DNA of 64,000 bases from an uncultured Candidatus Binatia bacterium (GTDB taxonomy: Bacteria > Desulfobacterota > Binatia > Bin18), in NCBI GenBank assembly GCA_965214605.1, contig OZ243961.1, positions 2,272,001 through 2,336,000 of the forward strand, in the 5' to 3' direction. The position numbers were made by a program, and so were the translations under genes. Below the pieces are notes generated by a model. It had not been told where the DNA came from and made no database searches. It saw only the letters and a list, made by a program, of their open reading frames with translations. Shown here in pieces: positions 29,762 through 45,136 of this stretch (positions within the stretch are counted from its first letter, which is position 1; each line of letters opens with the position of its first letter).

Positions 29762-32700
29762 GATCTATCCCCGCGTGTACGGGGAACCGCGCTGTAAGGC
29801 GTCTACCAACCCGGTCGGCTGAATCTATCCCCGCGTGTACGGGGGAACCGTCTGACCGGAGACCAGATTGCGCCGGGAAATCGGTCTATCCCCGCGTGTA
29901 CGGGGGAACCTAAGGAACATATAGTGGCAACAAGGCGGGACGGGGTCTATCCCCGCGTGTACGGGGGAACCATTTCATCACCCCGATAGAGGAGTCGAAC
30001 TATGGGTCTATCCCCGCGTGTACGGGGGAACCCTCGTAGTACGCGCGGTAGGCCTCGGTCAGCTGGGTCTATCCCCGCGTGTACGGGGGAACCCTGTCCT
30101 GTTAGCGCTATGAGTCTCTTCTTTAGGGTCTATCCCCGCGTGTACGGGGGAACCGCCCCATCCCTCCTGCTGTGCGGCTTCAATAAAGGTCTATCCCCGC
30201 GTGTACGGGGGAACCAACGCGAGGACAACGGTGACCACTACTATATCAGGTCTATCCCCGCGTGTACGGGGGAACCAAGGCCCCTCTCCGGGTGAATGTC
30301 TGGATCTGCGGTCTATCCCCGCGTGTACGGGGGAACCCACTAACCATCCACACACACCTGGGCTGGATCGGGTCTATCCCCGCGTGTACGGGGGAACCTG
30401 TTGGTTGTTTTTCGTGTTCGCCATGACTCTGGGTCTATCCCCGCGTGTACGGGGGAACCGTCACCGTTCTTCGATTGATTGTTAGTCCTTAGGGTCTATC
30501 CCCGCGTGTACGGGGGAACCGTATCGGACACCTCAACAGTCAGATCATAAAGAGGTCTATCCCCGCGTGTACGGGGGAACCCGCACATGGACATAGAGAT
30601 AAGAGCAGTTGCCAGGTCTATCCCCGCGTGTACGGGGGAACCCTTGGAACAGCGAGGAAATAAACAATCTGTCAGGGTCTATCCCCGCGTGTACGGGGGA
30701 ACCCTGCTCACTCCCTGTCCCGCGCTCACTCCCTGGGGTCTATCCCCGCGTGTACGGGGGAACCAGACTCTAAGAGGAACCCGTACTCAGATAGCAAGGT
30801 CTATCCCCGCGTGTACGGGGGAACCGTGTTGACACATCCTCTCCAGGATATACGATATGGTCTATCCCCGCGTGTACGGGGGAACCTCATCTTCTTTTGT
30901 TGGGACATAAAGAAGATAAGGTCTATCCCCGCGTGTACGGGGGAACCTCCTTTCCGGTACTGGAGAGGCCCCCCTAGCGAGGTCTATCCCCGCGTGTACG
31001 GGGGAACCTGGTGGTGTAGTCGCTCTGTAAAAAAATCCCAAGGTCTATCCCCGCGTGTACGGGGGAACCGCCCGGACAGTGCAATCCTGAACATGATCGT
31101 AGGGTCTATCCCCGCGTGTACGGGGGAACCCTGGCCGAGGTGCTCATAATCCTCTCATGATGAGGTCTATCCCCGCGTGTACGGGGGAACCATGCGAGAA
31201 CCATTTATAGCCAAGCGAAAAAGAGGTCTATCCCCGCGTGTACGGGGGAACCCCGGAGGTCGACCGTGAGCTGTTCCTCGAGGGGGGTCTATCCCCGCGT
31301 GTACGGGGGAACCCCAAATCGACATTCCCCCCGGCGGTGAAGCTGAGGTCTATCCCCGCGTGTACGGGGGAACCCAAATAGACGTCGCGTTGGCAGTATT
31401 CCCCAAAGGTCTATCCCCGCGTGTACGGGGGAACCTTGGGCATACGACGCACCGAACACCCGGTATTCGGTCTATCCCCGCGTGTACGGGGGAACCCGAT
31501 ATATCGTCGAAACGATCGGTTCTTCGAGGGGTCTATCCCCGCGTGTACGGGGGAACCTCCCGCCGTTGGTGGAGCTGCCGCCCCGCATGAGGTCTATCCC
31601 CGCGTGTACGGGGGAACCTCTGTAGCCCTCTTCGAATAGCTCCTTTTCAAAGGTCTATCCCCGCGTGTACGGGGGAACCTCGAAAAACAAGAGCCAGCTT
31701 TTTAAAGATCTGGGTCTATCCCCGCGTGTACGGGGGAACCGGCCAGGCGGGCAGGCGGGCAGGCTGTGTCAAAGGTCTATCCCCGCGTGTACGGGGGAAC
31801 CCTGGCCGAGGTGCTCATAATCCTCTCATGATGAGGTCTATCCCCGCGTGTACGGGGGAACCCCAGCGCGACAAGCCTTTTTTTCAACTGAATAGGGTCT
31901 ATCCCCGCGTGTACGGGGGAACCCGACACGGTTCAACTTGACTTCGGTCTACATGTGGTCTATCCCCGCGTGTACGGGGGAACCTTTATCAACAGGAAGC
32001 GATTTTACGGCATTAGCGGTCTATCCCCGCGTGTACGGGGGAACCCGGCCGCTCGGGGTCCTGAAAAAACGCAGGCAAGGTCTATCCCCGCGTGTACGGG
32101 GGAACCAGTGCGGGGCTCCCCTTGGCGGTGGAGGTGACGGGTCTATCCCCGCGTGTACGGGGGAACCTCCAGGATGGGATCCGAGATAGATCTGATCTGG
32201 GGTCTATCCCCGCGTGTACGGGGGAACCGGATTATGCGCTGAACACGCCAGACGCTACACCGGTCTATCCCCGCGTGTACGGGGGAACCACTCAAACATA
32301 GAAGCCTTCTCATGAACATCCAGGTCTATCCCCGCGTGTACGGGGGAACCTTTGTAAAGATTTTTATGAGGGGAGAAATAAACGGTCTATCCCCGCGTGT
32401 ACGGGGGAACCTTGCTGGTGTCCAGGCGAATCGGTGCGCCGTCAGGTCTATCCCCGCGTGTACGGGGGAACCCGCTTCAACCCGGACCGTAAAGGGCCGG
32501 AGTTGGGTCTATCCCCGCGTGTACGGGGGAACCCAATATCGACCCCCTCGGCAGTCGTGTCAAAGGGGTCTATCCCCGCGTGTACGGGGGAACCCTGGAA
32601 AGTGCAGACCAAGGCAGGAACCAGGCAGGTCTATCCCCGCGTGTACGGGGGAACCTCGTGCCTGAGATAGGCCAGGATCTCGTCCCGGGGTCTATCCCCG

Positions 32701-35667
32701 CGTGTACGGGGGAACCGGCGGCAGTGAGTTTGACCCGCGTGAGGGGGAGGGTCTATCCCCGCGTGTACGGGGGAACCCAGATGTTATCGCCTTTTGTTCC
32801 TGTTCCCACGGGTCTATCCCCGCGTGTACGGGGGAACCGCCATCGCTGCGGGGCAAAACCGGGCCTTCAGCGGTCTATCCCCGCGTGTACGGGGGAACCG
32901 CAAAATGACTTTCCACCTCACGGGATGGGAGCGGTCTATCCCCGCGTGTACGGGGGAACCGCCTACAACGGCCACACGCGCACTTTTCTCACGGGTCTAT
33001 CCCCGCGTGTACGGGGGAACCGGCGGGAGTTTGCGGGTTGTTTTAGGCATCTGAGGTCTATCCCCGCGTGTACGGGGGAACCAACTGCTGCTGGTCGTGA
33101 TACCGCTCATGGCAAGGTCTATCCCCGCGTGTACGGGGGAACCATATCGGTGGAGCTCCTGGAGCTTTTCATACGAGGTCTATCCCCGCGTGTACGGGGG
33201 AACCGATCCCCCTCGATTTGGATACCGAAATATCGACGGTCTATCCCCGCGTGTACGGGGGAACCTGTGTCACCACCCCGTCTTCCGGGGTCAAAATAGG
33301 TCTATCCCCGCGTGTACGGGGGAACCGTGGACCTGCGGGTCCACAGTGCCGAGCGCGGCGGTCTATCCCCGCGTGTACGGGGGAACCGTCACGGCAGGCG
33401 GCGCGGCCTACCCGGCGCGCGGTCTATCCCCGCGTGTACGGGGGAACCCGTGACCCACTCGTCGCTGTGTCCACGGATCAAGGTCTATCCCCGCGTGTAC
33501 GGGGGAACCATGTTTTTCCGCTTTTCCCCGGACCATATTTGCGGTCTATCCCCGCGTGTACGGGGGAACCTGTTTTGTCCCGGACCATATTTGCTCACGC
33601 AGGGGTCTATCCCCGCGTGTACGGGGGAACCCTTGTGTCGCAAGAGCTTAAGCAGTCTATTGCAGGTCTATCCCCGCGTGTACGGGGGAACCGTCCATGC
33701 CGTGCAAGTAATGCGGAGTCCGTAAGGTCTATCCCCGCGTGTACGGGGGAACCCTGGTGGGTGGACGTAGGGGTCTAGCGGCCTCCGGTCTATCCCCGCG
33801 TGTACGGGGGAACCGACTGGACCCCAGAGGAGAAGGCCAAGGTCCGCGGTCTATCCCCGCGTGTACGGGGGAACCCTGGACGGCCGTGGGGCTGGACGGC
33901 CGTGGGGCGGTCTATCCCCGCGTGTACGGGGGAACCCGGGCGGGGATCGTCAGCAGGAAGCTTAGTCTGGGTCTATCCCCGCGTGTACGGGGGAACCGAG
34001 GTCGCGGTGAGCGACGTCCCCTGGAGGCGGGGTCTATCCCCGCGTGTACGGGGGAACCGAAATGACCGGGCGTTGAAGGCCCGGACGTCGGGGTCTATCC
34101 CCGCGTGTACGGGGGAACCCCTCTTTGCGCCACACGTTACTCTATAAAGGCAGGTCTATCCCCGCGTGTACGGGGGAACCGCCGGCGCGGGCGGCTATAC
34201 GCCCGAGGAGGCGGGTCTATCCCCGCGTGTACGGGGGAACCTTCGCCAGGGCTTGGTTGACGAACAGCAGCGTGGGTCTATCCCCGCGTGTACGGGGGAA
34301 CCGTCGGGCGGGACGATCCCCAACTCGCGGAGGTAGGTCTATCCCCGCGTGTACGGGGGAACCCGTCTAGCTGCGTGCGGCCGGTATAGCTCAAGCGGTC
34401 TATCCCCGCGTGTACGGGGGAACCGGCACTTAGCATAGAAAACGACACGCGTCATACATCCCCGCGTGTCATAGAAGGTAGGTCTATCCCCGCGTGTACG
34501 GGGGAACCTCTGGTGTCGATATGCGCACGATTGCGAAATCGGGTCTATCCCCGCGTGTACGGGGGAACCTATATACGCTGCTCTGTCCCCCGCGTCAACC
34601 CCGGTCTATCCCCGCGTGTACGGGGGAACCTTCGGGTTGTAGAACAACGTAGTGTAATCCTTCGGTCTATCCCCGCGTGTACGGGGGAACCCGCTACCGT
34701 CCATGCGTGTCGGCCGCTAAGGGCGGTCTATCCCCGCGTGTACGGGGGAACCTTGGGTACGACGGGGCGCGTCGCCCCGTGCGTGGGTCTATCCCCGCGT
34801 GTACGGGGGAACCCGACTGGTTCCAGCGCGTCAAAGAGCGGCCCGAGGTCTATCCCCGCGTGTACGGGGGAACCCCTGTGCAAGAAAGAATGCCAAAACG
34901 ACATCAAGGTCTATCCCCGCGTGTACGGGGGAACCCCAGACAGTGGGTCTGGACACGAGGACACATGAGGTCTATCCCCGCGTGTACGGGGGAACCAGCA
35001 TCGGGAGGAGCTCGAGGTCGAGCCGGTCCGGTCTATCCCCGCGTGTACGGGGGAACCGATGCGTCGCCAGGATGGTACAGGACAGAAGAAGGTCTATCCC
35101 CGCGTGTACGGGGGAACCCCCGGCTCACCCTCCCGGCTCCAGCCCGGCTCCGGTCTATCCCCGCGTGTACGGGGGAACCTTGGGTTGTATGGACACCAAG
35201 TGTCAGCAAATAGGTCTATCCCCGCGTGTACGGGGGAACCCAGGAGACTCTATATATGACTCACGCTATTCAGGGTCTATCCCCGCGTGTACGGGGGAAC
35301 CCATGGAGTACATCAAGGAGCATGCATAAAATATGGTCTATCCCCGCGTGTACGGGGGAACCCGGCACTGATCCCACAGCTCTATATAAGAGAAAGGTCT
35401 ATCCCCGCGTGTACGGGGGAACCATTTTATTTGTCTTTTTTTATTCCAAAGGGTAAGGTCTATCCCCGCGTGTACGGGGGAACCATATGAGGTACATCAC
35501 ACCACATGTATAAAGTAGGTCTATCCCCGCGTGTACGGGGGAACCCTATCACGAACTTAGTGCTTTTATTTTTAAAAAGGTCTATCCCCGCGTGTACGGG
35601 GGAACCGGCGCTCTCCAGGACCGCCCCTTTCTTGGGCGGGGTCTATCCCCGCGTGTACGGGGGAACC
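29762..35667 (-). CRISPR. Type I-E CRISPR array: 97 repeats and 96 spacers; repeat GGTTCCCCCGTACACGCGGGGATAGACC (28 nt), 33-nt spacers
   Basis: GGTCTATCCCCGCGTGTACGGGGGAACC recurs on + with a 61-nt period. The degenerate repeats at 29762 and 29822 mark the trailer, and the leader abuts cas2. Repeats were counted by hand. Confidence 0.99.
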
Positions 35668-35743: not shown

Positions 35744-36049
35744 CTAAGTATCCTGACGCGGGCAGATTCGTCTGGAGAGAATGATACCCTCCTGATCCAC
35801 CAACTCGACGGGAGGCGTGCCGAGGACGCGCACGGCTTGCCCACCTGGTTCATGCGAGTCCTGCCACGTCATGATGATAGATCCTCCCCCAAGCTCCAAG
35901 AACCATTCTGAGATCACCGTCCAGATTTGCTTTCGCACACGGGAGGAAAGCGTTGGAGAGGTGTATATTCCGGGAGCGATCTCAAGCATACACGAAGCAA
36001 GAAACCCGCGGATCCGCGGGGCAACATCACGAGTGACTACTACTGTCAT
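35744..36049 (-). CDS. cas2: Cas2, type I-E
   Basis: MTVVVTRDVAPRIRGFLASCMLEIAPGIY. Confidence 0.93.
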   Translation of the reverse strand: MTVVVTRDVAPRIRGFLASCMLEIAPGIYTSPTLSSRVRKQIWTVISEWFLELGGGSIIMTWQDSHEPGGQAVRVLGTPPVELVDQEGIILSRRICPRQDT

Positions 36050-36908
36050 CGTTGTCAATCAACTGAATGATCCGGTCAATCATCTTTGAGATGATTTTCG
36101 TCTGTCTGAATCGTCGCCCGGCCAGCCGTCTGACATGCCGTTCAAGCGGGATATGGCCGTTGGCATAATACTGGCTGACTGCCTCAAAAGCGACCGGGAT
36201 AGTGACTTCGGTTCGGTAGAGGTCTGCTATGTCCAGGCAAAAGGCGATGGAAGCGTCCTCGTGGATAAAGCCCAGCGGGGGCAAGGTTCCGGTTGCTGCT
36301 ACGGCGACAATGGCCGCGGCTTCCGTAGCAGTGGCCGCGTGGTTGATAGCCTGGTTGGGGTCGTCGGCTATTTCCGGGTGCTGACGGTCATAGCGCCGTC
36401 CGTGCCAGTCAATGCCATAGCGCTCAGCCAGCAGTTGGTAGGATTTCTTCATCCGCGCCCCTTCGATACCGCGCATGATGGTGATGTCCTGTTCGGGCAG
36501 GACCTCGCCTAAACGCCAGGCATACATTCGGCGTGCGATCCGTAGCCGCACCCGTCGGTCGTTCCAGAGTTTCGCCTGACGGCGTGCCCTTCGTGAGTCG
36601 TTCGGACCAAAGGGCTGGGCGCTGTACATGCGCACCCCATCTTCTCCAACGGCCACGAGGCCGGTTCCGTGTCGGGCCAGCAGCCGGAAAACGTCGTGGC
36701 TGACGGTCGAGCCAGGCCCGAGCAGGATGAATGAGATGTTCTGAAACGGGATAGCATAATTTCCAGCCTGCATGTCTGCAGATCCTGCGGTGCGAAAACA
36801 CAACGTCCCATCCTCTACAGTAAGATTTCCTCGCGACAGCCACAACAAGCCGTGGCGGTCAGCGTGGGGCACTCGGGCCGCCTCCAGCCCTAATCTGCCT
36901 TTCAGCAA
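36027..36908 (-). CDS. cas1: Cas1, type I-E
   Basis: LLGPGSTVSH, RGIEGAR and LGFIHE...DIADLY motifs. Confidence 0.95.
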   Translation of the reverse strand: MLKGRLGLEAARVPHADRHGLLWLSRGNLTVEDGTLCFRTAGSADMQAGNYAIPFQNISFILLGPGSTVSHDVFRLLARHGTGLVAVGEDGVRMYSAQPFGPNDSRRARRQAKLWNDRRVRLRIARRMYAWRLGEVLPEQDITIMRGIEGARMKKSYQLLAERYGIDWHGRRYDRQHPEIADDPNQAINHAATATEAAAIVAVAATGTLPPLGFIHEDASIAFCLDIADLYRTEVTIPVAFEAVSQYYANGHIPLERHVRRLAGRRFRQTKIISKMIDRIIQLIDNDDSSSHS

Positions 36909-36956: not shown

Positions 36957-37688
36957 CTAGTTAGCGGTAACGCCGGCGGGCCGCAGGAGCAGCATCCCAT
37001 ACCCATAGGCGCGGTGCCGTCCAATGCCTTGAGCCAGTAGATTGGCGAAGGCGTCAGCGTCGGTAATGATGAGCGTGCCCCGCATGATCGCGTCTGGCCC
37101 TTCGCTGTAGCGAGCGTGACGCTTGCGCAAGGCACGAGTACGCTGAAAGGAGTACAGGGTGGCGCTTTCCAGCTGGGCGCCGCCCCGTCGTCGGAACTGT
37201 TCCGTTAGCCAATCGGCATAGACCTCCTCACGGCTACGCGGCATTTCTCCCTTTAGATGCTGAACTGCTTCCGATAAAAAAATATCGCATTCCTTGCCCG
37301 GACGGCAAGTGGAGTTGCGGGAGAGGCGCACGATAGGACGCACGCGCGTTTCAAAGCCCAAGCGCTTTCCGACCTGCCACCTTGACGGCATCGGCTTGCT
37401 GTTGAGGCCAGCGGCGGGGATGATAAGGGCTTGTAGCGGGTCGGCGTAGACGCTTGCCGCCTCGCGCAGGGTCTCGGCGTCAGCGCATCCATAACCGTAG
37501 AGGACGCCGCGGGATTGAGCGCGGCCGATTATCAGGCGAAAGGGTTGGGGCGCTGGCTTGCCGAACATTTCCCTGAGAAGGCAGTGCATGGCGTGATCGC
37601 TATCCTGTAAGTCCTTTAAACCCGTCCAGCGTCGGAAGTTTCGCATGTCCATGTCGGCTCGTATCATGTGGAGTAATGCCGTAGTCAT
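36957..37688 (-). CDS. cas6e: Cas6e (Cse3/CasE)
   Basis: C-terminal G-rich loop GIGRHRAYGYGMLLL. Confidence 0.93.
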   Translation of the reverse strand: MTTALLHMIRADMDMRNFRRWTGLKDLQDSDHAMHCLLREMFGKPAPQPFRLIIGRAQSRGVLYGYGCADAETLREAASVYADPLQALIIPAAGLNSKPMPSRWQVGKRLGFETRVRPIVRLSRNSTCRPGKECDIFLSEAVQHLKGEMPRSREEVYADWLTEQFRRRGGAQLESATLYSFQRTRALRKRHARYSEGPDAIMRGTLIITDADAFANLLAQGIGRHRAYGYGMLLLRPAGVTAN

Positions 37689-37697
37689 ACTATCTCC

Positions 37698-38417
37698 TTA
37701 CTTACCCCCTATCATCCCTTCGCACACCAGCCTCCCGCCGCCGTGCAGGCCAGAGAGCCAGTCGCGCCGGTCGGTAAGCATGTAGCTCCGACTGGGGACA
37801 ATCTCTGCTGTGCCTTCAGCGTCAGGCCATAGGAGTTGCCGGGAGGGTGGTTCATTCGACTCATCCGGCTCAGCGGCTAGTAGGGCGGCCAGGGCGGTCT
37901 CGCCGTCGCTGAAACCACCAAACAGGGGCGCTGACGGCAGGCACGATTTACGTCCGATGAACAGCGGACGCGCCGGCTCCTGCAGCGCCTCGGCCAAGTC
38001 ATCCAGTGTCGGCGCGTCCGTTGCCAATGCTAGGCGCATGGCAACGCTGACACGCATATCAGCGAAGTAGTCACGATAGCGCAGATGGGGCGCGTCATAG
38101 GTATTCGGACCGCCGGCTCGGCCTTCGGGCTGTCCGCGTGTAGTCCACGCCTTGTCGCCAGCCCCGAGTTGCGCCGTCTGAAAGTCGGTCAGACGTGCCC
38201 CGCCAGCCGGCTCCCGGTCAATGCGGACGGCGAAAACCAGCCGGTCTTGCAGGCGCTGATGCTGCTCCCGCTCAATGCGCCGCCAGCCTAAGGCATTAGC
38301 GAACAGACCCGTCAGCATGGACGCTGCTGGAAACCGGCGGATGACCCCATAATTATCGATTGCCTCGCCGCCAAAGGCCATGAGGGGGCTTTCCAGGTTC
38401 AGAATCAAGTGCCGCAT
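37698..38417 (-). CDS. cas5e: Cas5e (CasD)
   Basis: PLMAFGG, LFANALG and PLFIGRKSCLPS motifs; normal length with no HNH extension. Confidence 0.93.
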   Translation of the reverse strand: MRHLILNLESPLMAFGGEAIDNYGVIRRFPAASMLTGLFANALGWRRIEREQHQRLQDRLVFAVRIDREPAGGARLTDFQTAQLGAGDKAWTTRGQPEGRAGGPNTYDAPHLRYRDYFADMRVSVAMRLALATDAPTLDDLAEALQEPARPLFIGRKSCLPSAPLFGGFSDGETALAALLAAEPDESNEPPSRQLLWPDAEGTAEIVPSRSYMLTDRRDWLSGLHGGGRLVCEGMIGGK

Positions 38418-38419
38418 GG

Positions 38420-39589
38420 TTAGCCACCGTTACGAACCGCGTCCGCGGCCCAGCTCGCGAGGTCGTCGAGGCAGACGCGCTTGGCGCCGGGGAGCTCGCA
38501 GTCCTCAACTGTCATGACACATCGGTTTTCCCGCGCTCCATATGCGGCGTCCAGCTTGCCCAGATGTGCGGACAGAGAAGCCGTTGCCGCTGCGATCTGG
38601 GCCTGAGCGGGAGTACGGAAGGCGTTAGCCAGGCTGCGCGGCTGGCGTGTGCCAGCCTCAATTAGCATCAGGTCGGCACAGCTATAGGGGGCGGTAGAGC
38701 CCAGCTTTGCCCCAGGCGACACCGTAGCAATAATATGAACCAGATGCTCAAGAACTTTGCCGGTCAACGTTTTGTCCGCATTCTCCCATTCGTTGGCGGC
38801 ACAGCCCTCCAGATTAGAAACCAACCCTGGTACGTCTACAACCACATAGCCGTAAAACAGCCCTGCGGTCAGTTCCATATCGCCGATGTGGGCCGCGCCA
38901 GGGTCTTCATCCTCGCTCTGAAGGTCGTCCACCACCGAGAAATAATCGCTTTCGCTCTCTTCCTGATGCACGGTGAAGGCATGGGCGACATGAATAGCAG
39001 CATCAATGTTCGCGCCGGGGTCAGAAGTCACCATCCGGCCAAACATCGCGCCTTCCAGTCCGCCGGGTAGGCGCGCCTGCTCTCGAAAAGCGCGGAAGTT
39101 GTTGCCCTCGCCTTGGCGCCCCTTGAAAAGCTCATCTGCTGCCTTTTTTGCCGCGTCGGCATTATTGGCATGTTCGGTGCAGATAGCCTCTGCCTTTTTC
39201 CGGAGATACTCCACTTCAGGCAGACCGAGTAGGAGGGGCTGTCGCGCGCTTTCGGACGTCCCACTAGACCCGTACACGCCGACGTTGAAAGCGTTTTCGA
39301 CTGCTTCAAGAACGTCGTCAGCGATGCCGCCGGCCGTGCGTAATGGCTGCATCACCTTTCGCTCAACGACATTCCGGGAGCGTACTGCTTCCTGCGCGCC
39401 GGCAATGTTACGGAGGGAGAATTCATCATCTGCCACCCGCCAGTGTCGCTTGAGACACTGGGACGATATGCGGGTCCGCACCGTGCCGCCAAAGGGCATC
39501 CGCTTAGCGAGGCCGCTGTCATCACGGTTCAGCAGTGCCGCTGGGTAGGAATGCAGGGTGTGGATCTGTAGAAAACGTGCTTTGGTCAT
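38420..39589 (-). CDS. cas7e: Cas7e (Cse4/CasC)
   Basis: LNRDDSGLAKR, RISSQCLKR, FGRM and DYFSVVDD motifs. Confidence 0.95.
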   Translation of the reverse strand: MTKARFLQIHTLHSYPAALLNRDDSGLAKRMPFGGTVRTRISSQCLKRHWRVADDEFSLRNIAGAQEAVRSRNVVERKVMQPLRTAGGIADDVLEAVENAFNVGVYGSSGTSESARQPLLLGLPEVEYLRKKAEAICTEHANNADAAKKAADELFKGRQGEGNNFRAFREQARLPGGLEGAMFGRMVTSDPGANIDAAIHVAHAFTVHQEESESDYFSVVDDLQSEDEDPGAAHIGDMELTAGLFYGYVVVDVPGLVSNLEGCAANEWENADKTLTGKVLEHLVHIIATVSPGAKLGSTAPYSCADLMLIEAGTRQPRSLANAFRTPAQAQIAAATASLSAHLGKLDAAYGARENRCVMTVEDCELPGAKRVCLDDLASWAADAVRNGG

Positions 39590-39616
39590 TGTCAATCTCC
39601 TTGTGCTGGTAGTGCG

Positions 39617-40540
39617 CTAGTTTGTTGATGGTTGGGAGCTGAGCCGTTCTGCCTGATAGTAGGCGCGGGCGATACGGCGGCGTGCTTCTTCAGCCTGTTC
39701 TTCGTTGTACCCATCGTTCAGAATGAAGTATGCCATTTCATGCCAGTCGAAGACTTGGTTGGCGGAGGCCAACATTCGGAACAGCCGTGCCAGCAGTACA
39801 TACAGCATCGGTCCCCGAGCCGTTAGCAGTCGGTTCAGGCGTGTCTCGCTGTAGAAGGCGGTTGTCCGCTTGGTTTCACCGCCGAGGAACAGCGCTCTCC
39901 CAATCCTGGTTTTATTATGAGCGGAGCGTCTGTCCGCGGTGCCGGTCATCAGCGCGATACCGTGCATGATGAGCGCCCATTTGCGGTCGAAGGTACGATT
40001 GTCATAGCGTGGCAGCAGCCGCCAGAAGGCTGTTGCATCGGGGGTGTCCGGGGCCATCCGTCGTAATTCAGCTAGCTCCCTGCTGGACAAGTCACCGATA
40101 TCCCGGACAAGTTCGCATACAATAGCCGTAAGGGTAGGTCGAGGAGGCAGCCAGGGAGTGCTACGGACGACCTTGGACGACGGCTCGATAATCTGTCCGG
40201 TCTTATCTGGAGGACCGTCCCTTAAGATCTTCTCAATAGAGTTCCAATCTTTAGGACGCCAAACAAAGGTGGGGACTTGATGGGCAAAATCCTCCAGAAA
40301 CTCTTTCTGCTCATTAGACAGGCCGCCGTCGTCTGTTTTGAGTTCCGCAGCGATCATTGTACGGCGTCCATTTTTGTCCCTGTAGCGCAAGATCAAATCT
40401 GGGAACCCGCGTGGAATTGGTGCTTCCTTATAAGCATAAGCGCGGTCGGGAATATGGAATGGAGACCAGCCGTGGGATTTCGCTTCGGCTTCCACGGCTC
40501 GCTGGAACTCCCATTCATTCTTGAACGTAATCTCTGACAT
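39617..40540 (-). CDS. cas11: Cas11/Cse2 (CasB) fused to an N-terminal VRR-NUC (PD-(D/E)XK) nuclease domain
   Basis: The N-terminal ~107 aa read EWEFQ...GW..FH...GFPDL...AELKT..G.LS.EQ...VWRPKDW. After a Pro-rich linker, the C-terminal part carries Cse2 motifs LAELRR, FWRLL, SETRLNRLL, DW and RRRIARAYY. Confidence 0.88.
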   Translation of the reverse strand: MSEITFKNEWEFQRAVEAEAKSHGWSPFHIPDRAYAYKEAPIPRGFPDLILRYRDKNGRRTMIAAELKTDDGGLSNEQKEFLEDFAHQVPTFVWRPKDWNSIEKILRDGPPDKTGQIIEPSSKVVRSTPWLPPRPTLTAIVCELVRDIGDLSSRELAELRRMAPDTPDATAFWRLLPRYDNRTFDRKWALIMHGIALMTGTADRRSAHNKTRIGRALFLGGETKRTTAFYSETRLNRLLTARGPMLYVLLARLFRMLASANQVFDWHEMAYFILNDGYNEEQAEEARRRIARAYYQAERLSSQPSTN

Positions 40541-40542
40541 AA

Positions 40543-42099
40543 TCACTCCTCCTCGGTGTCGAACAGAAATGGCAGCCCCTTCGGCCCGCGCAGTCGCCCC
40601 TCAAATAGTCTCTCAGCGTTGGCATGGGCGCGGTAGCGGTGAATGGCGGGGCAGGGCAGGGCAGCCGTGGCGTCGCGGAGGACGCGGCGAGCGTGATCAA
40701 CTACCCCGTCTTTGCGGTTCATCAGCCAGGCCTCTCGGATGTGCTTGCGTTCAGTGTTCTCGGCCTCAAACTCGGTCTGTAGATCGTCAAAGAACCGGAC
40801 GTCAACGATTGCGTCGAGCTTGTCTCCCCAAGGATTGGCCAACCCTCGCTGCTCAGAGCTGGTATTGTTGCCCTCACCACGAGCGGCAAATGTTGCAATG
40901 GCGTGGCGCAAAATGCGCTGGACAATAGCAATCTGAGCAATACGGTCTTTGGCAATGTCGCCCAATTCCTGAGCCAGCATCCCAGAGCGCAGCATAGCTG
41001 TTCTGGCCTTGCTCCTGATGGGGATAATGCGTTCGTGATAGCCTTCGGTTTTGCCTTGGCCCCGCACCATTGCCCGGGCGACAAGCTGCATCGTTGCTGA
41101 GGAGCGCTGTTCGGCCTGTGTTGGCTGTAGCAAGAGCGGATGTTCCCATGAGGTCAGATATTCCGTAATCCGCTTGTAGGTAAAGCCGCCGGCGGGCAGA
41201 GTCAGGGCTTTCTCTTCTTTCGGGTTGATGGGGGTCCACGGGTCGCCCAGTCTGCCTTTGTGGTCTTTCGCCTCAATGCGCTCTGCTTTGGAACTTGCCC
41301 TGACCGCGCTGAGCTTGAGCTTGCCGTCCGCCCCGAAGCACAAGCGGATACGCCGGCAAATCTCGATGTAGTGGGAGGCCAGTTGGTTCGGCAGCAACTT
41401 TTCCGTTTTGGTCCCATTCCAGGGAAGGGTCCACAGTAGGCCGATATCGCCATCGGTCGTTGAAGGACTGCTCAGCAGTATCATGATATCGCGCCGTGCG
41501 TGCGCACCCGGTCGTGTGGACGGCGTCAGTGTGAAGGCCGGTCGGCTGCCGAATCCGCCATTCATCCGCGAGATTCCGTAATTGCCGGCCCCGCTGAATC
41601 CCTGCATCGTTTGCAGAGTAATTAGCGCAAACAGCCAGGAGTCCATGCTTGCCTCAGTCGCCACGGTCGATTTGAGGTCGTGGTTCTTAGATGTGACCAG
41701 CATGTCCAGCTCGTCGGGTGTTGCGATGGGGGTCTTGTAGTCTTTGGCCTTGTCTTCTGAGGAGGTCGGTGGCTGCATGAAGGCGGGAAGGCTGAAGTCG
41801 TCCACCACCAGCTGCCAGGGCTCGTCGCCCGGAGAGTCAGGCGTCAGCCCACGGATCAAGCTAGTCCATTCTGTCGCATCTACTGGTGGTTCACTAAGAC
41901 CGGCCCGGCGTATTGCCATCGTGCCGAGTTGGACGAAAAAGGCGTGGCAGGCGTGTCGTTGGTGGGGACGTAGTACGGGAAAAGCGTCTAGTTCATCCCG
42001 CATCAACGCGGTGTAGACTTCCGGCAACGACGCCTCTCTGCCTGAGCCGCTGCCTGCCGTATCAATCCGAATCAACGGTTCTGTGAGAATGTTGAACAT
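40543..42099 (-). CDS. cas8e: Cas8e (Cse1/CasA); possible in-frame N-terminal extension to 42234/42240
   Basis: MFNILTEPLI, LRPHQRHA, TPDELDML and GAGNYGISRMNGG motifs; first gene of the Cascade operon. Confidence 0.9.
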   Translation of the reverse strand: MFNILTEPLIRIDTAGSGSGREASLPEVYTALMRDELDAFPVLRPHQRHACHAFFVQLGTMAIRRAGLSEPPVDATEWTSLIRGLTPDSPGDEPWQLVVDDFSLPAFMQPPTSSEDKAKDYKTPIATPDELDMLVTSKNHDLKSTVATEASMDSWLFALITLQTMQGFSGAGNYGISRMNGGFGSRPAFTLTPSTRPGAHARRDIMILLSSPSTTDGDIGLLWTLPWNGTKTEKLLPNQLASHYIEICRRIRLCFGADGKLKLSAVRASSKAERIEAKDHKGRLGDPWTPINPKEEKALTLPAGGFTYKRITEYLTSWEHPLLLQPTQAEQRSSATMQLVARAMVRGQGKTEGYHERIIPIRSKARTAMLRSGMLAQELGDIAKDRIAQIAIVQRILRHAIATFAARGEGNNTSSEQRGLANPWGDKLDAIVDVRFFDDLQTEFEAENTERKHIREAWLMNRKDGVVDHARRVLRDATAALPCPAIHRYRAHANAERLFEGRLRGPKGLPFLFDTEEE

Positions 42100-42297
42100 G
42101 GGCCTTAACCTCTCTCTCAAGTGCCTCTGGTCAGAAGCATCTCCGTGTTGTATTTCTACCCGTGTGGTCCCAAGTTGGGTCTGCAACGTCAGGGATGGGG
42201 GAGGACGGGCTGCAGCTTGAACAGCATCTGTCATAATCATTCCTCCTAGAATCTTGCGAGAATATTTTGTCGCACTATTCTCTATTTAGCAACGCAA

Positions 42298-42326
42298 AGA
42301 TTAGAGAAAGAAGTTTTATTTGTCAA
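42298..42326 (-). promoter_or_regulatory. Sigma70 promoter of the Cascade operon
   Basis: TTGACA (42326-42321), a 17-nt spacer and TAATCT (42303-42298). Confidence 0.75.
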
Positions 42327-42335
42327 TCCCCATCC

Positions 42336-42424
42336 ATCCTACCCCGCAGCACGGGGATAGACCGCTTTGCGTTGCGAGGTGAACTCTCCGCGCTAAAGTT
42401 TCCCCGCAAACGCGGGGGCAGTGT
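42336..42424 (+). ncRNA. CRISPR-like regulatory mini-array (degenerate repeat, 33-nt spacer, degenerate repeat)
   Basis: ATCCTACCCCGCAGCACGGGGATAGACC / GCTTTGCGTTGCGAGGTGAACTCTCCGCGCTAA / AGTTTCCCCGCAAACGCGGGGGCAGTGT; the spacer seed matches 42299-42289. Confidence 0.8.
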
Positions 42425-42466
42425 TCTGTTGGTGGTTTTGTCTAGGTGGCTTAGGGCTGGTGTTGC

Positions 42467-45136
42467 TCATCGTATCCGCCCTAGACCTAGGCGGCCATAG
42501 TGGAACTGTGCGTTGCCGACCTGAAAGATAAAACCGTCGTCTGTCAACTCAGGCGCGACCGGCTCTTCACTAGCTAAGTTGCGGGCCAGATGGTGGGGAA
42601 TCGTTATTTGGGAGATTGTTTCGCGGCTGAAGGGGCTGATCGGTGCCGGCTCCAACTCAACCGTTATACCCTCGTCGCCCAGCCGAGTCCGTATTTTCTC
42701 CTCCAGGGATCCAAAAATCACTTCCTGGTTGTCTACAAAAAAGGATTTATCACGCCGGACGACCGCACTCCGGGCAGTCAGACCCTCGGCAAGTTCGGTC
42801 CCCTTTAGCGTAGTAGCGTGAACCCGCCAGGCGTCTCCCAACTCTGCGGTGATGGCCTCCAGTGTCTCAATGTGGGTTGTTCGTTCGACCAGTTCTCGGT
42901 TCATCTCCGGGATGCGCCATAGACTGGCGCGCTTCGCATGATCTACAATCAGCCGCCTCGTGGCCTCCAGGACACGCAGGTCCTCATACACATGACCGTG
43001 CGGCCCCAGGCCATTCCGACCCGAACCTTTTGCCAGCAGGGGCGAGAGGTCCGTGTCGGTCGGCAGGAGCACGATGCAGATCGGTGTCTCATATCCGGCC
43101 GGCCGGTCAGGCCGTTGGTGTCGGTGTAAGCGGCCAATCCGCTGAAGCAGCACATCCATTGGGCACAGATCGGTTATGAGAAGGTCGGCGTCTATATCGA
43201 GAGATTGCTCCAGCGTCTGGGTGCCCACGACAACGCGTCCGCCGGGACGGCGGTTTTTGCCAAGCTGCTCCTCAACCGCTCTATCTAGTTGGAGACGGTC
43301 GCCAGCGGCGAACCGGCCGTGGTGGAGCGTGAAAACGTCCCCGCAGGCATACAGCAAACCACGTTCGTCGGACGGGACGCTTTTTTCCAGTGTTTGCTGG
43401 GTGTCGACCGCGTGACCGACCGTGTTGCGAATGACCAGAGCTTTTGCGCCGGCGCGGGCCGCGTGCAGGCTGCGTTCCGCGACCTGAGCGAAGTCATCCA
43501 TGGCCGCGGAGGCTTCAATTCGTACTGTTTTTTCTTTTCCATTGTGAGCGACAGCGACCATACGCTCACCGCCGTTCGCCTGGATTGTGACCGCGGGGTA
43601 GGGTGCTCTGATTGCCTCGCTGAGAGGGGGCATGTCTTGCAAACCGGCAAAATAGCGACGACGGGCCACAGAACCTAGTGTGGCCGACATCAACACCGCG
43701 TAGCCACCGGCGCTGATATGGGCGTCAAGCAGAGTCTTGAGAATACTGCTCATATAGGGGTCGGAGGCGTGTACTTCGTCCACTACCAGCAGACTGCGTG
43801 CTAGGCAGGCGGCGCGCAGATGGGCGTGTTTCACTTTGAGGGCTGCCATCATGGCCTGATCTACGGTGCCCACGGCAATTTGCGCCGCCAAGTAGCGTTT
43901 GGCGCTTTCTGCGGCCCACCGGCGTTTTTCGGTGGCGACGTCGGGATGATCGTCCCACCAGACCTCATAGTTTGGGAGATGTTTGCCTCCGGCATCTCCG
44001 GCCCGTACATAGCCGGGGACCGCTAAGACGGGCTCCGGACCGGTGTCTCTGGGAAACAGATTTGTGATGAATCGCACAACGCGCCCGTGCATCTGGCTGG
44101 CGGCCGCGCGAGTCGGTAGGGCAAAGTACAGTCCATCCACCAGTTCGGCCCGGTACATATGGGCAAAGCGCCACAAGGCAGCCTCAGTTTTGCCGGAGCC
44201 GGTTTCAGACTCGATGATGACCAGCCGCTCGTCCGTCGGGACCGCTTTTGCCGACCGCTGGATAGGATTGGGCGTTGCGTTGGGGATGCTGAACAGGTCG
44301 CCAAAATCCGGCAGGGCTGCCAGCTGGCGAAAGATCTTTCGCTGGCTTTTCAGATTCAACCCGATGTCCGAAACCGCACGGAGGGCGTTTTGTCGCGCGG
44401 TGTTGATGTAGTCGTTGCGTGACTCGGCGCAAAACGGAAAATTGCGTTCGTCAGAGCCAATCCAGTCGGCCAGCATGCATAGGCCCAGGAACATATGTTG
44501 GAAGGCAGGAGTGGATGGCAGGAGTGGCGTGTTGGACGTGAAGGCGGACGGGAACCATTGTCGCACGAGGTGGCTGATGCGCTCCACGCAGGCCTGGGGG
44601 TGTAACTCGCCAAAGGCGCGCCATGCTGAAGGGTTGGGTTGCCGCGTGTCCTCCAGTTGCAGGGGGAGGCCGTGATGCGACAGCGCAGCGATGAACAACC
44701 CGCAGACGGTCTCGCCGTCCTTATCGTCCCAGGTCAACAAATCATCCCACCAGCCCAGCGCGTCAAAAAACCAGGCGGATGTTTTTTCATCCTTGTTGTT
44801 CAGGATGGGCGTCAGATCGGCTATGTGGCCGGCGCGGGGTGGCGTTTTCTTGTACGCCGGCGCATCCGTGGGATGCCAGATGCGCGTCTGAAAGCCGACG
44901 TTGACCTTGCCGATATCGTGGAGAGCGGCAAATACTGCCAGCCGCGCCTCGGTTGCGCTGTCTATGACCTCCAGCCCGCCGGCCTGTGCCAGGCGTTGCC
45001 TGATGGTCGGCTGCGCCAGCAGTGTCTCGAAGCAGGCACCGACATCGGCCATGTGGTGCTCCAATAGATGAATGCGGCGCGGGTTGTCCCGGTCCGATTT
45101 TGCCCAGAATGCCCTGGTATATGCCGCGGCTGTCAT
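42467..45136 (-). CDS. cas3: Cas3 (HD nuclease plus SF2 helicase)
   Basis: HDIGK, LADW, ETGSGKTE, DEVH, QSLDID and QRIGRLHRH motifs are all intact. Confidence 0.96.
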   Translation of the reverse strand: MTAAAYTRAFWAKSDRDNPRRIHLLEHHMADVGACFETLLAQPTIRQRLAQAGGLEVIDSATEARLAVFAALHDIGKVNVGFQTRIWHPTDAPAYKKTPPRAGHIADLTPILNNKDEKTSAWFFDALGWWDDLLTWDDKDGETVCGLFIAALSHHGLPLQLEDTRQPNPSAWRAFGELHPQACVERISHLVRQWFPSAFTSNTPLLPSTPAFQHMFLGLCMLADWIGSDERNFPFCAESRNDYINTARQNALRAVSDIGLNLKSQRKIFRQLAALPDFGDLFSIPNATPNPIQRSAKAVPTDERLVIIESETGSGKTEAALWRFAHMYRAELVDGLYFALPTRAAASQMHGRVVRFITNLFPRDTGPEPVLAVPGYVRAGDAGGKHLPNYEVWWDDHPDVATEKRRWAAESAKRYLAAQIAVGTVDQAMMAALKVKHAHLRAACLARSLLVVDEVHASDPYMSSILKTLLDAHISAGGYAVLMSATLGSVARRRYFAGLQDMPPLSEAIRAPYPAVTIQANGGERMVAVAHNGKEKTVRIEASAAMDDFAQVAERSLHAARAGAKALVIRNTVGHAVDTQQTLEKSVPSDERGLLYACGDVFTLHHGRFAAGDRLQLDRAVEEQLGKNRRPGGRVVVGTQTLEQSLDIDADLLITDLCPMDVLLQRIGRLHRHQRPDRPAGYETPICIVLLPTDTDLSPLLAKGSGRNGLGPHGHVYEDLRVLEATRRLIVDHAKRASLWRIPEMNRELVERTTHIETLEAITAELGDAWRVHATTLKGTELAEGLTARSAVVRRDKSFFVDNQEVIFGSLEEKIRTRLGDEGITVELEPAPISPFSRETISQITIPHHLARNLASEEPVAPELTDDGFIFQVGNAQFHYGRLGLGRIR

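Follow-up and report, generated by a model that had tools for sequence, protein, structure and literature searches.

In Salmonella enterica, a type I-E CRISPR-Cas system encodes CreR, which, according to the preprint describing it, lowers the PcasA promoter about 8.6-fold and responds both to the load of CRISPR RNA (crRNA) and to an anti-CRISPR protein (Liu et al., bioRxiv 10.1101/2023.03.10.532045). A second preprint puts the share of bacterial type I-E loci that have a mini-array at about 19% (Shmakov et al., bioRxiv 10.1101/2023.03.03.530964). Here, we focus on a mini-array found between cas3 and cas8e in a stretch of 64,000 nucleotides (nt) from an uncultured Candidatus Binatia bacterium (contig OZ243961.1, positions 2,272,001 to 2,336,000), which we will call the window. 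From its conserved position in related loci, the covariation of its spacer with a promoter target, the AA-N motif flanking this target and the 5+1 periodicity of the pairing, we conclude that the element is very likely the gene of a Cascade-guiding autorepressor RNA, a type I-E member of the CreR or crRNA-like RNA (crlRNA) type. The comparative data support the proposed binding geometry, and it is from the S. enterica type I-E CreR that we infer transcription, processing, repression and the lack of cleavage.

The gap between cas3 and cas8e measures 226 nt, and its plus strand, opposite to the cas genes, carries two pseudo-repeats around one spacer, so that the mini-array gives this gap inside the cas operon an annotation. 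It lies 43 nt beyond the cas3 stop codon, on the other strand. The first pseudo-repeat, psiR1 (42336-42363, plus strand, ATCCTACCCCGCAGCACGGGGATAGACC), shares 16 of 28 nt with the canonical repeat, including all of the last 12 (CGGGGATAGACC), and carries the 5' handle AUAGACC(G). The second, psiR2 (42397-42424, plus strand, AGTTTCCCCGCAAACGCGGGGGCAGTGT), is the source of the 3' handle and shares 19 of 28 nt, with 17 of the first 21 kept. Between them lies the spacer-like psiS of 33 nt (42364-42396, plus strand), whose nt 1 corresponds to protospacer adjacent motif (PAM) position -1 and whose nt 2-12 form the seed CTTTGCGTTGC. Both pseudo-repeats form a CCCCG/CGGGG hairpin, with predicted folding energies of -11.0 (psiR1) and -13.3 kcal/mol (psiR2), against -13.3 kcal/mol for the canonical repeat; the psiR1 stem has 5 bp and that of psiR2 6-7 bp with a tetraloop. 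The halves that are kept correspond exactly to what one mature crRNA needs, namely a 5' handle from psiR1 and a 3' hairpin from psiR2. In type I-E systems, Cas6e cuts at the 3' base of the repeat stem. If it does so at both stems here, the folds and this processing rule predict a mature crRNA-like RNA of 61 nt (42357-42417, plus strand), made of an 8-nt handle, a 32-nt guide and a 21-nt 3' hairpin. The 12-mer CGGGGATAGACC has a single copy outside CRISPR arrays in the 4.37-megabase (Mb) genome, at psiR1, and psiR2 is the only array-external 21-mer of the genome with at least 17 of 21 positions identical to the 5' part of the repeat. The element does not look like an adaptive array, since its repeats are degenerate and its spacer seed is conserved across genera. 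A search of 42150-42550 against Rfam returned no family, the single match being a chance one to U5 (E 0.63).

The target of the seed lies on the minus strand, in the putative promoter of cas8e and hence of the Cascade operon (42298-42326). This promoter consists of TTGACA at 42326-42321 and TAATCT at 42303-42298, 17 nt apart, and it stands about 50-57 nt upstream of the start of cas8e, a gene that has a GGAGG ribosome-binding site. Guide positions 1-11 match the minus strand at 42299-42289 without a mismatch (11/11), and this protospacer-like site is preceded by AAT at 42302-42300, within the -10 hexamer; the site overlaps the -10 box. The first-pass annotation of this DNA had already placed a mini-array with a 33-nt spacer between cas3 and cas8e on the opposite strand, with hairpins in both repeats, a preserved handle in the first one and an AAT-flanked seed match over the TAATCT box. 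All of this was confirmed base for base, and both hairpins do fold. When position 6 is left free, the seed has 11 sites in the genome on both strands, for about 8 expected by chance. A single one of these 11 carries AA at positions -3 and -2, and this is the promoter site, 65 nt from the spacer and on the required strand; no other AA-N seed site exists in the 4.37-Mb genome. Three other genomic sites with "CCG + seed" lie in unrelated sequence. Because the 12-mer is unique outside arrays and the AA-N seed site is single, a chance origin of the mini-array together with its seed match is very unlikely.

How widespread this arrangement is was addressed by several searches. A DNA search covered 55 genomes of the family and found the element in 7 of them, the window's genome counted, and a search for Cas8e homologues covered 56 genomes of the order and found them in 17. 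Motif scans detected mini-arrays in 10 of these 17 genomes and none in the other seven (G005, G012, G010, G027, G026, G018 and G024), in which cas3 abuts cas8e, or is separated from it by a gap holding other genes or a repeat-flanked insertion, or does not lie upstream. A Cas7 search with one genome per species then gave 80 loci (L047-L126) whose Cas7 is 65-79% identical to that of the window. They come mostly from metagenome-assembled genomes titled Dehalococcoidia or Chloroflexota, the others being SAR202, Caldilineaceae, Binatia, Entotheonella and Nitrospira, and Cas7 identities of up to 79% suggest that the entire locus, together with its mini-array, has spread horizontally across phyla. 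With a motif heuristic, 21 of the 80 loci proved to have an isolated antisense mini-array, 17 of them with a cognate site. An nhmmer profile was built from 26 mini-arrays, using their upstream halves only to avoid swamping by canonical arrays, and it matched in 44 of the 80 loci, always opposite to the cas strand and 2.3-3.1 kb upstream of cas7, a distance that places the match immediately upstream of cas8e. The mini-arrays are antisense to the cas genes everywhere except in two distant loci (genomes G020 and G025). The set used below pools 46 mini-arrays, the first 26 and 20 found by the profile. Left aside were L086 (same spacer as L085), G007 (same sequence as L060), L078 (same locus as G004), G021 (decayed and siteless), G031 (where contig C771 ends before the promoter), G020 and G025 (different architecture), and L054 and L074 (partial profile matches).

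A site counted as cognate if no more than one of the ten scored seed positions was mismatched, and positions 6 and 12-32 played no part in the choice. In the window, the seed CTTTGCGTTGC faces the target AAT-CTTTGCGTTGC. In G034, of the same genus, the seed TTTTGTGTTGC faces AAT-TTTTGTGTTTC, where positions 1 and 6 have changed on spacer and target alike and a single mismatch is seen, at position 10. In G007, from another genus, positions 7, 8 and 10 differ from the window in both the seed CTTTGCACTAC and the target AAT-CTTTGCACTAC. The pairs are CTTTGCACTAC with AAC-CTTTGTACTAC in G002 and CCTTGCACTAC with AAT-CCTTGTACTAC in G037, and G004 has an unrelated seed, TCTTACGGTAC, facing AAA-TCTTAGGGTAC. 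Compensatory changes are thus seen in the close relatives G034, G007 and G037, and the guide/target pair is kept by covariation rather than by the sequence itself. Under the same criterion, 22 of the first 26 mini-arrays have a cognate AA-N site, versus 12 of 650 non-cognate spacer/locus pairs, and these 12 may stem from related seeds. The 20 profile-found mini-arrays were collected blind to any target; 13 have a cognate site within 300 nt when no PAM is imposed, and all 13 sites are AA-N. Altogether, a nearby cas-sense site exists for 35 of the 46 mini-arrays, whose spacers are very different from one another. The PAMs of these 35 targets, again with no constraint imposed, are AAT (23), AAC (8), AAG (3) and AAA (1). 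The reading of the first-pass annotation, a CreR/crlRNA-type mini-array guiding Cascade to its own promoter through a seed-only match, therefore gains strong comparative support from the pairing kept in these relatives, with AA-N at all 35 targets.

The most telling result is the distribution of matches along the guide. Among the 35 pairs, positions 1-5 match in 34-35, position 6 in 8, positions 7-11 in 30-35, position 12 in 3, positions 13-17 in 30, 25, 19, 20 and 20, and position 18 in 10, and positions 19-32 match in 4-13 pairs, for about 9 expected by chance. As read from these alignments, the profile has the 5+1 periodicity that is typical of pairing guided by Cascade, where one base in six is flipped out, and such periodic pairing argues for binding by Cascade and for that only. 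The same sixth-position pattern is reported for type I mini-arrays by Shmakov et al. (bioRxiv 10.1101/2023.03.03.530964). At guide position 12, the 3 matches in 35 fall below the roughly 9 expected by chance, and it may be that a mismatch is favoured at this position and not only tolerated. The psiR1 stem covaries as well. An exactly complementary 5' arm of this stem is present in 36 of the 46 loci, against 2 of 46 in a control window, and among the variant 3' arms, 9 of 10 loci have a matching 5' arm, a covariation that fits processing by Cas6e and lends it indirect support. On the promoter side, cas-sense TTGACA-like -35 boxes beside psiR1 accumulate in three 10-nt bins (33 in all, against 0-8 in each other bin), and the TTGACA of the window falls within this peak of its relatives, a pile-up that fits a real cas8e promoter. 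In most loci, a TAnnnT -10 box comes first and the target begins 0-11 nt behind it; in the window, the two overlap.

These data bear directly on the alternative that the element is a functionless remnant, a decayed array or duplicated repeat with a coincidental seed match. The degeneracy of the repeats, the scans that found no promoter for the mini-array and the 11 relatives of the 46 that have no site by our criterion all speak for such decay. However, a remnant would not be expected to keep its position and strand in 44 of 80 loci across phyla, nor a psiR1 stem that covaries, nor a spacer that covaries with its target, with cognate matches far above the non-cognate ones, AA-N in 35 of 35 cases and a periodic match profile. 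We therefore hold this explanation to be extremely improbable.

The PAM can be approached from the main CRISPR array of the window (29762-35667, minus strand), which has 97 repeats of 28 nt (GGTTCCCCCGTACACGCGGGGATAGACC in the cas direction) and 96 spacers, 94 of them of 33 nt. In Escherichia coli type I-E, the first spacer base is PAM position -1. The first base of the 96 spacers is T in 39, C in 33, G in 21 and A in 3, and across 2291 spacers of the clade, it is C in 973, G in 710, T in 553 and A in 55. From this composition, the first spacer nucleotide is best read as PAM position -1, which leaves an effective handle of 8 nt and a guide of 32 nt. The first-pass annotation had taken AAT to be the PAM class of the main array; the 39 spacers of 96 that begin with T agree with this in part, and real protospacers yielded no independent PAM. 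No match was found for the whole main array in a phage collection, and the search for protospacers of the 2291 clade spacers in the collected DNA gave nothing new. Compared with these acquired spacers, 24% of which begin with T, the regulatory targets are biased, as 23 of 35 have T at -1 (binomial p 2e-7, a value that ignores kinship among the loci).

Several spacers of this array have matches of their own. Two of them, sp51 (32534-32566) and sp94 (29911-29943), match their own genome perfectly, at G000:C1:3170433-3170465 and 3218149-3218181, respectively. Spacer sp92 (30033-30065) matches C2, a 1.2-kb contig of the same assembly, with 30 of 33 nt identical and two of the mismatched nt in the seed, and this contig may be an escaping mobile element. 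Spacer sp32 (33693-33725) resembles spacers of a second array near G000:C1 1688600-1689200, which has a 37-nt repeat of the GTTTCAATCCCC...GGTTTAAAC type, and the two systems seem to keep a memory of one target. Outside the window, a second small array starting at G000:C1:2534815 has at least 3 type I-E repeats that are perfect and, after them, degenerate copies, and its first spacer has a near-identical copy at C1:2606567.

A number of points weigh against our interpretation and have to be considered together. The 11 mini-arrays lacking a site are the first, and the loci are related, so that all of the counts above overstate independence. A search of sequencing runs listed five that contain this sequence, none of them recorded as RNA, an outcome that is neutral on transcription. 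Only the regulatory targets and the first base of the spacers speak for the AA-N PAM, the protospacer searches having yielded no AA-N site. Indeed, neither of the two perfect self-matches, of sp51 and sp94, has an AA-N flank, a fact that may be the reason why they are tolerated, and the sp92 match on contig C2 is flanked by AT-C. The psiR1 stem is 1 bp shorter than the canonical one and its loop 1 nt longer (15 versus 16 nt in total), and a study on a phage type I-E array reports that a 1-nt loop deletion impaired Cas6 processing (bioRxiv 10.1101/2024.10.29.618823). The promoters are also imperfect. The -10 box of cas8e, TAATCT, has 3 of 6 positions in common with TATAAT, and this is why a consensus promoter scan of 42100-42600 on both strands listed no site there. 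For the mini-array itself, the first-pass annotation had proposed a divergent promoter; the two sequences are present, TTGCGA at 42254 and TATTCT at 42276, 16 nt apart (42254-42281, plus strand), and this candidate is weak (8 of 12 consensus positions), faces the cas8e promoter and is not conserved. Position-binned counts in the 46 loci showed no peak of sigma-70-like promoters at a consistent position in the mini-array sense, and a looser scan of 26 loci gave only weak and variably placed candidates, with none in 9 of the 26.

If the element acts as CreR does, the plus strand would be transcribed, and Cas6e would cut after the stems of psiR1 and psiR2 to release the RNA of about 61 nt, with AUAGACC+G as the 5' handle and the hairpin at the 3' end. 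This RNA would load into Cascade, which would read the AAT in the cas8e -10 box and open an 11-bp seed R-loop with the plus strand at 42289-42299. The bound complex would occlude the RNA polymerase at the -10/+1 region and lower the expression of cas8e, cas11, cas7, cas5 and cas6e, and probably that of cas1 and cas2. Since the pairing ends after the seed, the R-loop could not lock, Cas3 would not be licensed, and the chromosome would stay uncut. The outcome would be a negative feedback that relaxes when the 96 canonical crRNAs or an inhibitor draw Cascade off.

The immediate surroundings of the targeted promoter are relevant to another possibility, namely that the RNA is the CreA half of an addiction module resembling CreTA, which would mainly repress an adjacent small toxin gene and thereby guard the cas genes. 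The architecture equals that of creA, toxin-antitoxin genes are generally enriched between mini-arrays and cas genes according to Shmakov et al. (bioRxiv 10.1101/2023.03.03.530964), and extra genes follow the targeted promoter in some relatives (a DUF3800 gene in G002 and a small open reading frame (ORF) in G025). In the window, however, only about 50-57 nt separate the -10 box from the cas8e start, with no ORF and seemingly no room for a toxin RNA; no toxin gene was found under the targeted promoter, and the promoter site is the sole AA-N seed site in the genome. An addiction module is accordingly very improbable here, and autorepression of the cas genes is the reading that we retain.

The extra genes of the relatives deserve a description. 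The DUF3800 gene of G002 (L015:7128-7901, Pfam E 2.6e-16) lies between the targeted promoter and cas8e, and such a gene is also found in G037 and G021. It would be co-regulated by the mini-array, which fits the published idea of cargo under crlRNA control. The two loci of different architecture, L045 (G020) and L046 (G025), have a Cas8e about 40% identical to that of the window and carry a mini-array in the cas sense directly before cas8e (e.g., L046:5730-6040). In L046, the AAT-flanked site that the seed GTGGTGTCCGA matches follows a promoter on the same strand, about 170 nt upstream, with the small ORF in between, and in loci of this type, the operon transcript may carry the guide of its own repressor. 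Among the genomes devoid of a detected mini-array, the gaps of L037 (G012) and L040 (G010) have sequence in common with L038 that looks coding on the opposite strand. In L040 and L041 (G010 and G027), inverted copies of GGTAGTGTCTCACTTTG... bracket part of the cas3-cas8e gap, like a small transposable insertion.

The Cascade proposed to bind this promoter carries a fused domain. The cse2/cas11 ORF encodes 309 amino acids, of which the N-terminal 115 or so resemble a VRR-NUC domain of the PD-(D/E)xK type (Pfam E 6.8e-4, sub-threshold) and contain the motif FPD...AELK (PD...ELK), and Cas3 is retained in the locus. Of 102 locus entries, some of them duplicates, 24 have this domain ahead of Cse2. 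Altae-Tran et al. 2023 devote one sentence to a VRR-NUC-Cas11 fusion in type I-E, and no characterisation of such fusions was found. Eleven of the 46 mini-arrays occur with the fusion, and mini-arrays are also present in its absence. The match extension averages 5.4 matched positions with VRR-NUC (n=8) versus 7.1 in the loci devoid of it (n=27), not a significant difference (p=0.11). The suggestion of the first-pass annotation that the seed match may have to be short to keep the fused nuclease off self DNA thus finds no support in these numbers, which do not exclude it either. An intact Cas3 and a nuclease fused to Cas11 also raise the question of whether psiS is an immune guide whose effect at a self site would be cleavage or priming, as autoimmunity or genome editing, instead of repression. 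However, no more than 11 nt pair in the window, pairing seldom exceeds 17 nt in the relatives, and a guide/target pair stably inherited across genera is incompatible with cutting, so we give self-cleavage next to no credence and keep to binding at the promoter as the proposed activity.

The spacers of these mini-arrays are themselves structured. In psiS, an internal hairpin is predicted, and in the window, folding pairs the seed with the 3' end of the spacer. The mean folding energy is -8.97 kcal/mol for the regulatory spacers versus -6.70 kcal/mol for immune spacers; relative to shuffled sequences, the mean z is -1.5 for 32 full-length psiS versus 0.03 for 150 immune spacers (p=3e-11), and -1.22 for the window. 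The sequences forming these hairpins differ between loci. The hairpin may affect loading, stability or R-loop extension, and term searches limited to the main text of the CreR and Shmakov et al. preprints found no mention of a hairpin in regulatory spacers. Strong hairpins, structured spacers and a plus-strand location 43 nt beyond the end of cas3 could also be accounted for by an RNA acting mainly without DNA targeting, as a decoy for Cas6e or Cascade, as an antisense to cas3 read-through or as hairpins terminating cas3. None of these roles needs a PAM-flanked, covarying promoter seed match with the periodicity of Cascade, and the scan found no terminator-like site, so that a role independent of DNA targeting seems quite improbable. 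For the autorepressor, a speculative and rather unlikely extension is that the guide of this clade is a deliberately weak, binding-only sensor held by three locks. Pairing may be confined to two or three 5-nt segments, AAT might permit binding and be poor at licensing the nuclease, and the spacer hairpin could lower Cascade loading, letting the immune crRNAs outcompete it, and oppose R-loop extension. If so, the locks would be most important where Cascade carries a nuclease, as with the VRR-NUC-Cas11 of the window, and the natural self-target would offer a handle on the trigger of this uncharacterised nuclease.

The host system, encoded on the minus strand of the window, is of type I-E and complete, and it is recognised by NCBIfam and Pfam matches to its cas genes and by repeats of 28/29 nt with an ...AUA[AG]ACC handle. 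It comprises cas3, with HD nuclease and helicase (42467-45136, NCBIfam/Pfam), cas8e or cse1, the first gene 3' of the targeted promoter (40543-42240, NCBIfam), cse2/cas11 with the VRR-NUC (PD-(D/E)xK) domain at its N-terminus (39617-40546, NCBIfam/Pfam), cas7 (38420-39595), cas5 (37698-38417) and cas6e (36957-37688), all three by NCBIfam, and cas1 of the cas1e type (36027-36908) and cas2 (35744-36058), both by NCBIfam/Pfam, followed by the main array.

What these loci bring together is, first, a probable extension of the crRNA-like autorepression circuit to a type I-E lineage that uncultivated bacteria seem to share by horizontal spread, about half of its loci carrying the element. Beyond this, natural variation across the 46 loci can serve as a mutational scan of the requirements for a type I-E Cascade to bind and not cleave, which would be an AA-N PAM and guide positions 1-5, 7-11 and 13-17, positions 6 and 12 being indifferent. 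Three leads emerge from it, namely the AAT bias, the structured spacers and the coexistence with a Cascade carrying VRR-NUC-Cas11.

To the extent that sequence can define membership, the window element has all the features of the CreR/crlRNA family, whose functional criteria lie outside sequence. The closest relative is the S. enterica CreR, which, as described (Liu et al., bioRxiv 10.1101/2023.03.10.532045), is likewise a mini-CRISPR of two pseudo-repeats in a type I-E cas locus, with the 5'-handle bases kept in psiR1 and the 3'-handle bases in psiR2, a spacer partly matching a PAM-flanked site of the casA/cas8e promoter, and no toxin partner. Cascade-dependent autorepression is shown there and proposed here. 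The two differ in the match (15 consecutive nt there versus 11 nt here), in the PAM (AAG versus AAT) and in the site, which is about 140 bp upstream there and here covers the -10/+1 region, some 50 nt ahead of the start codon; moreover, the Cascade of the window carries the VRR-NUC-Cas11 fusion. The type I-E and I-F1 mini-arrays that Shmakov et al. present (bioRxiv 10.1101/2023.03.03.530964) resemble ours in lying in a long cas3-cas8 intergenic region, read opposite to cas3, with a seed that adjoins the better-conserved repeat, a PAM-flanked target in the cas8 promoter and tolerated sixth-position mismatches. The present clade differs in the 44 of 80 loci with a profile match, the AAT-biased PAMs and the structured spacers, though the same loci may be in the tables of that work. 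The phage Cracr arrays directed against type I-E (bioRxiv 10.1101/2024.10.29.618823) have the same RNA design and the same class of target, the casA promoter, but they are borne by phages and plasmids and silence the immunity of the host, whereas the window element is part of the cas operon of its host and has been conserved vertically together with its target. In the CreTA system of the Haloarcula hispanica type I-B locus, a crRNA-like RNA also turns Cascade into a repressor through a seed-only match, and the main target there is a toxin RNA gene, for which the window holds no candidate. The long form of the trans-activating CRISPR RNA (tracr-L) is reportedly a natural partial-match guide that represses the promoter of its own effector, cas9; it belongs to a class 2 system, with another RNA and another protein, and its logic is alike. 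Both the mechanism and the antisense cas3-cas8 placement are thus already published for type I-E, and the window element adds an instance rather than a mechanism. Compared with the main-text descriptions, what may be new is the high prevalence in one lineage, the AAT bias and the structured spacers.

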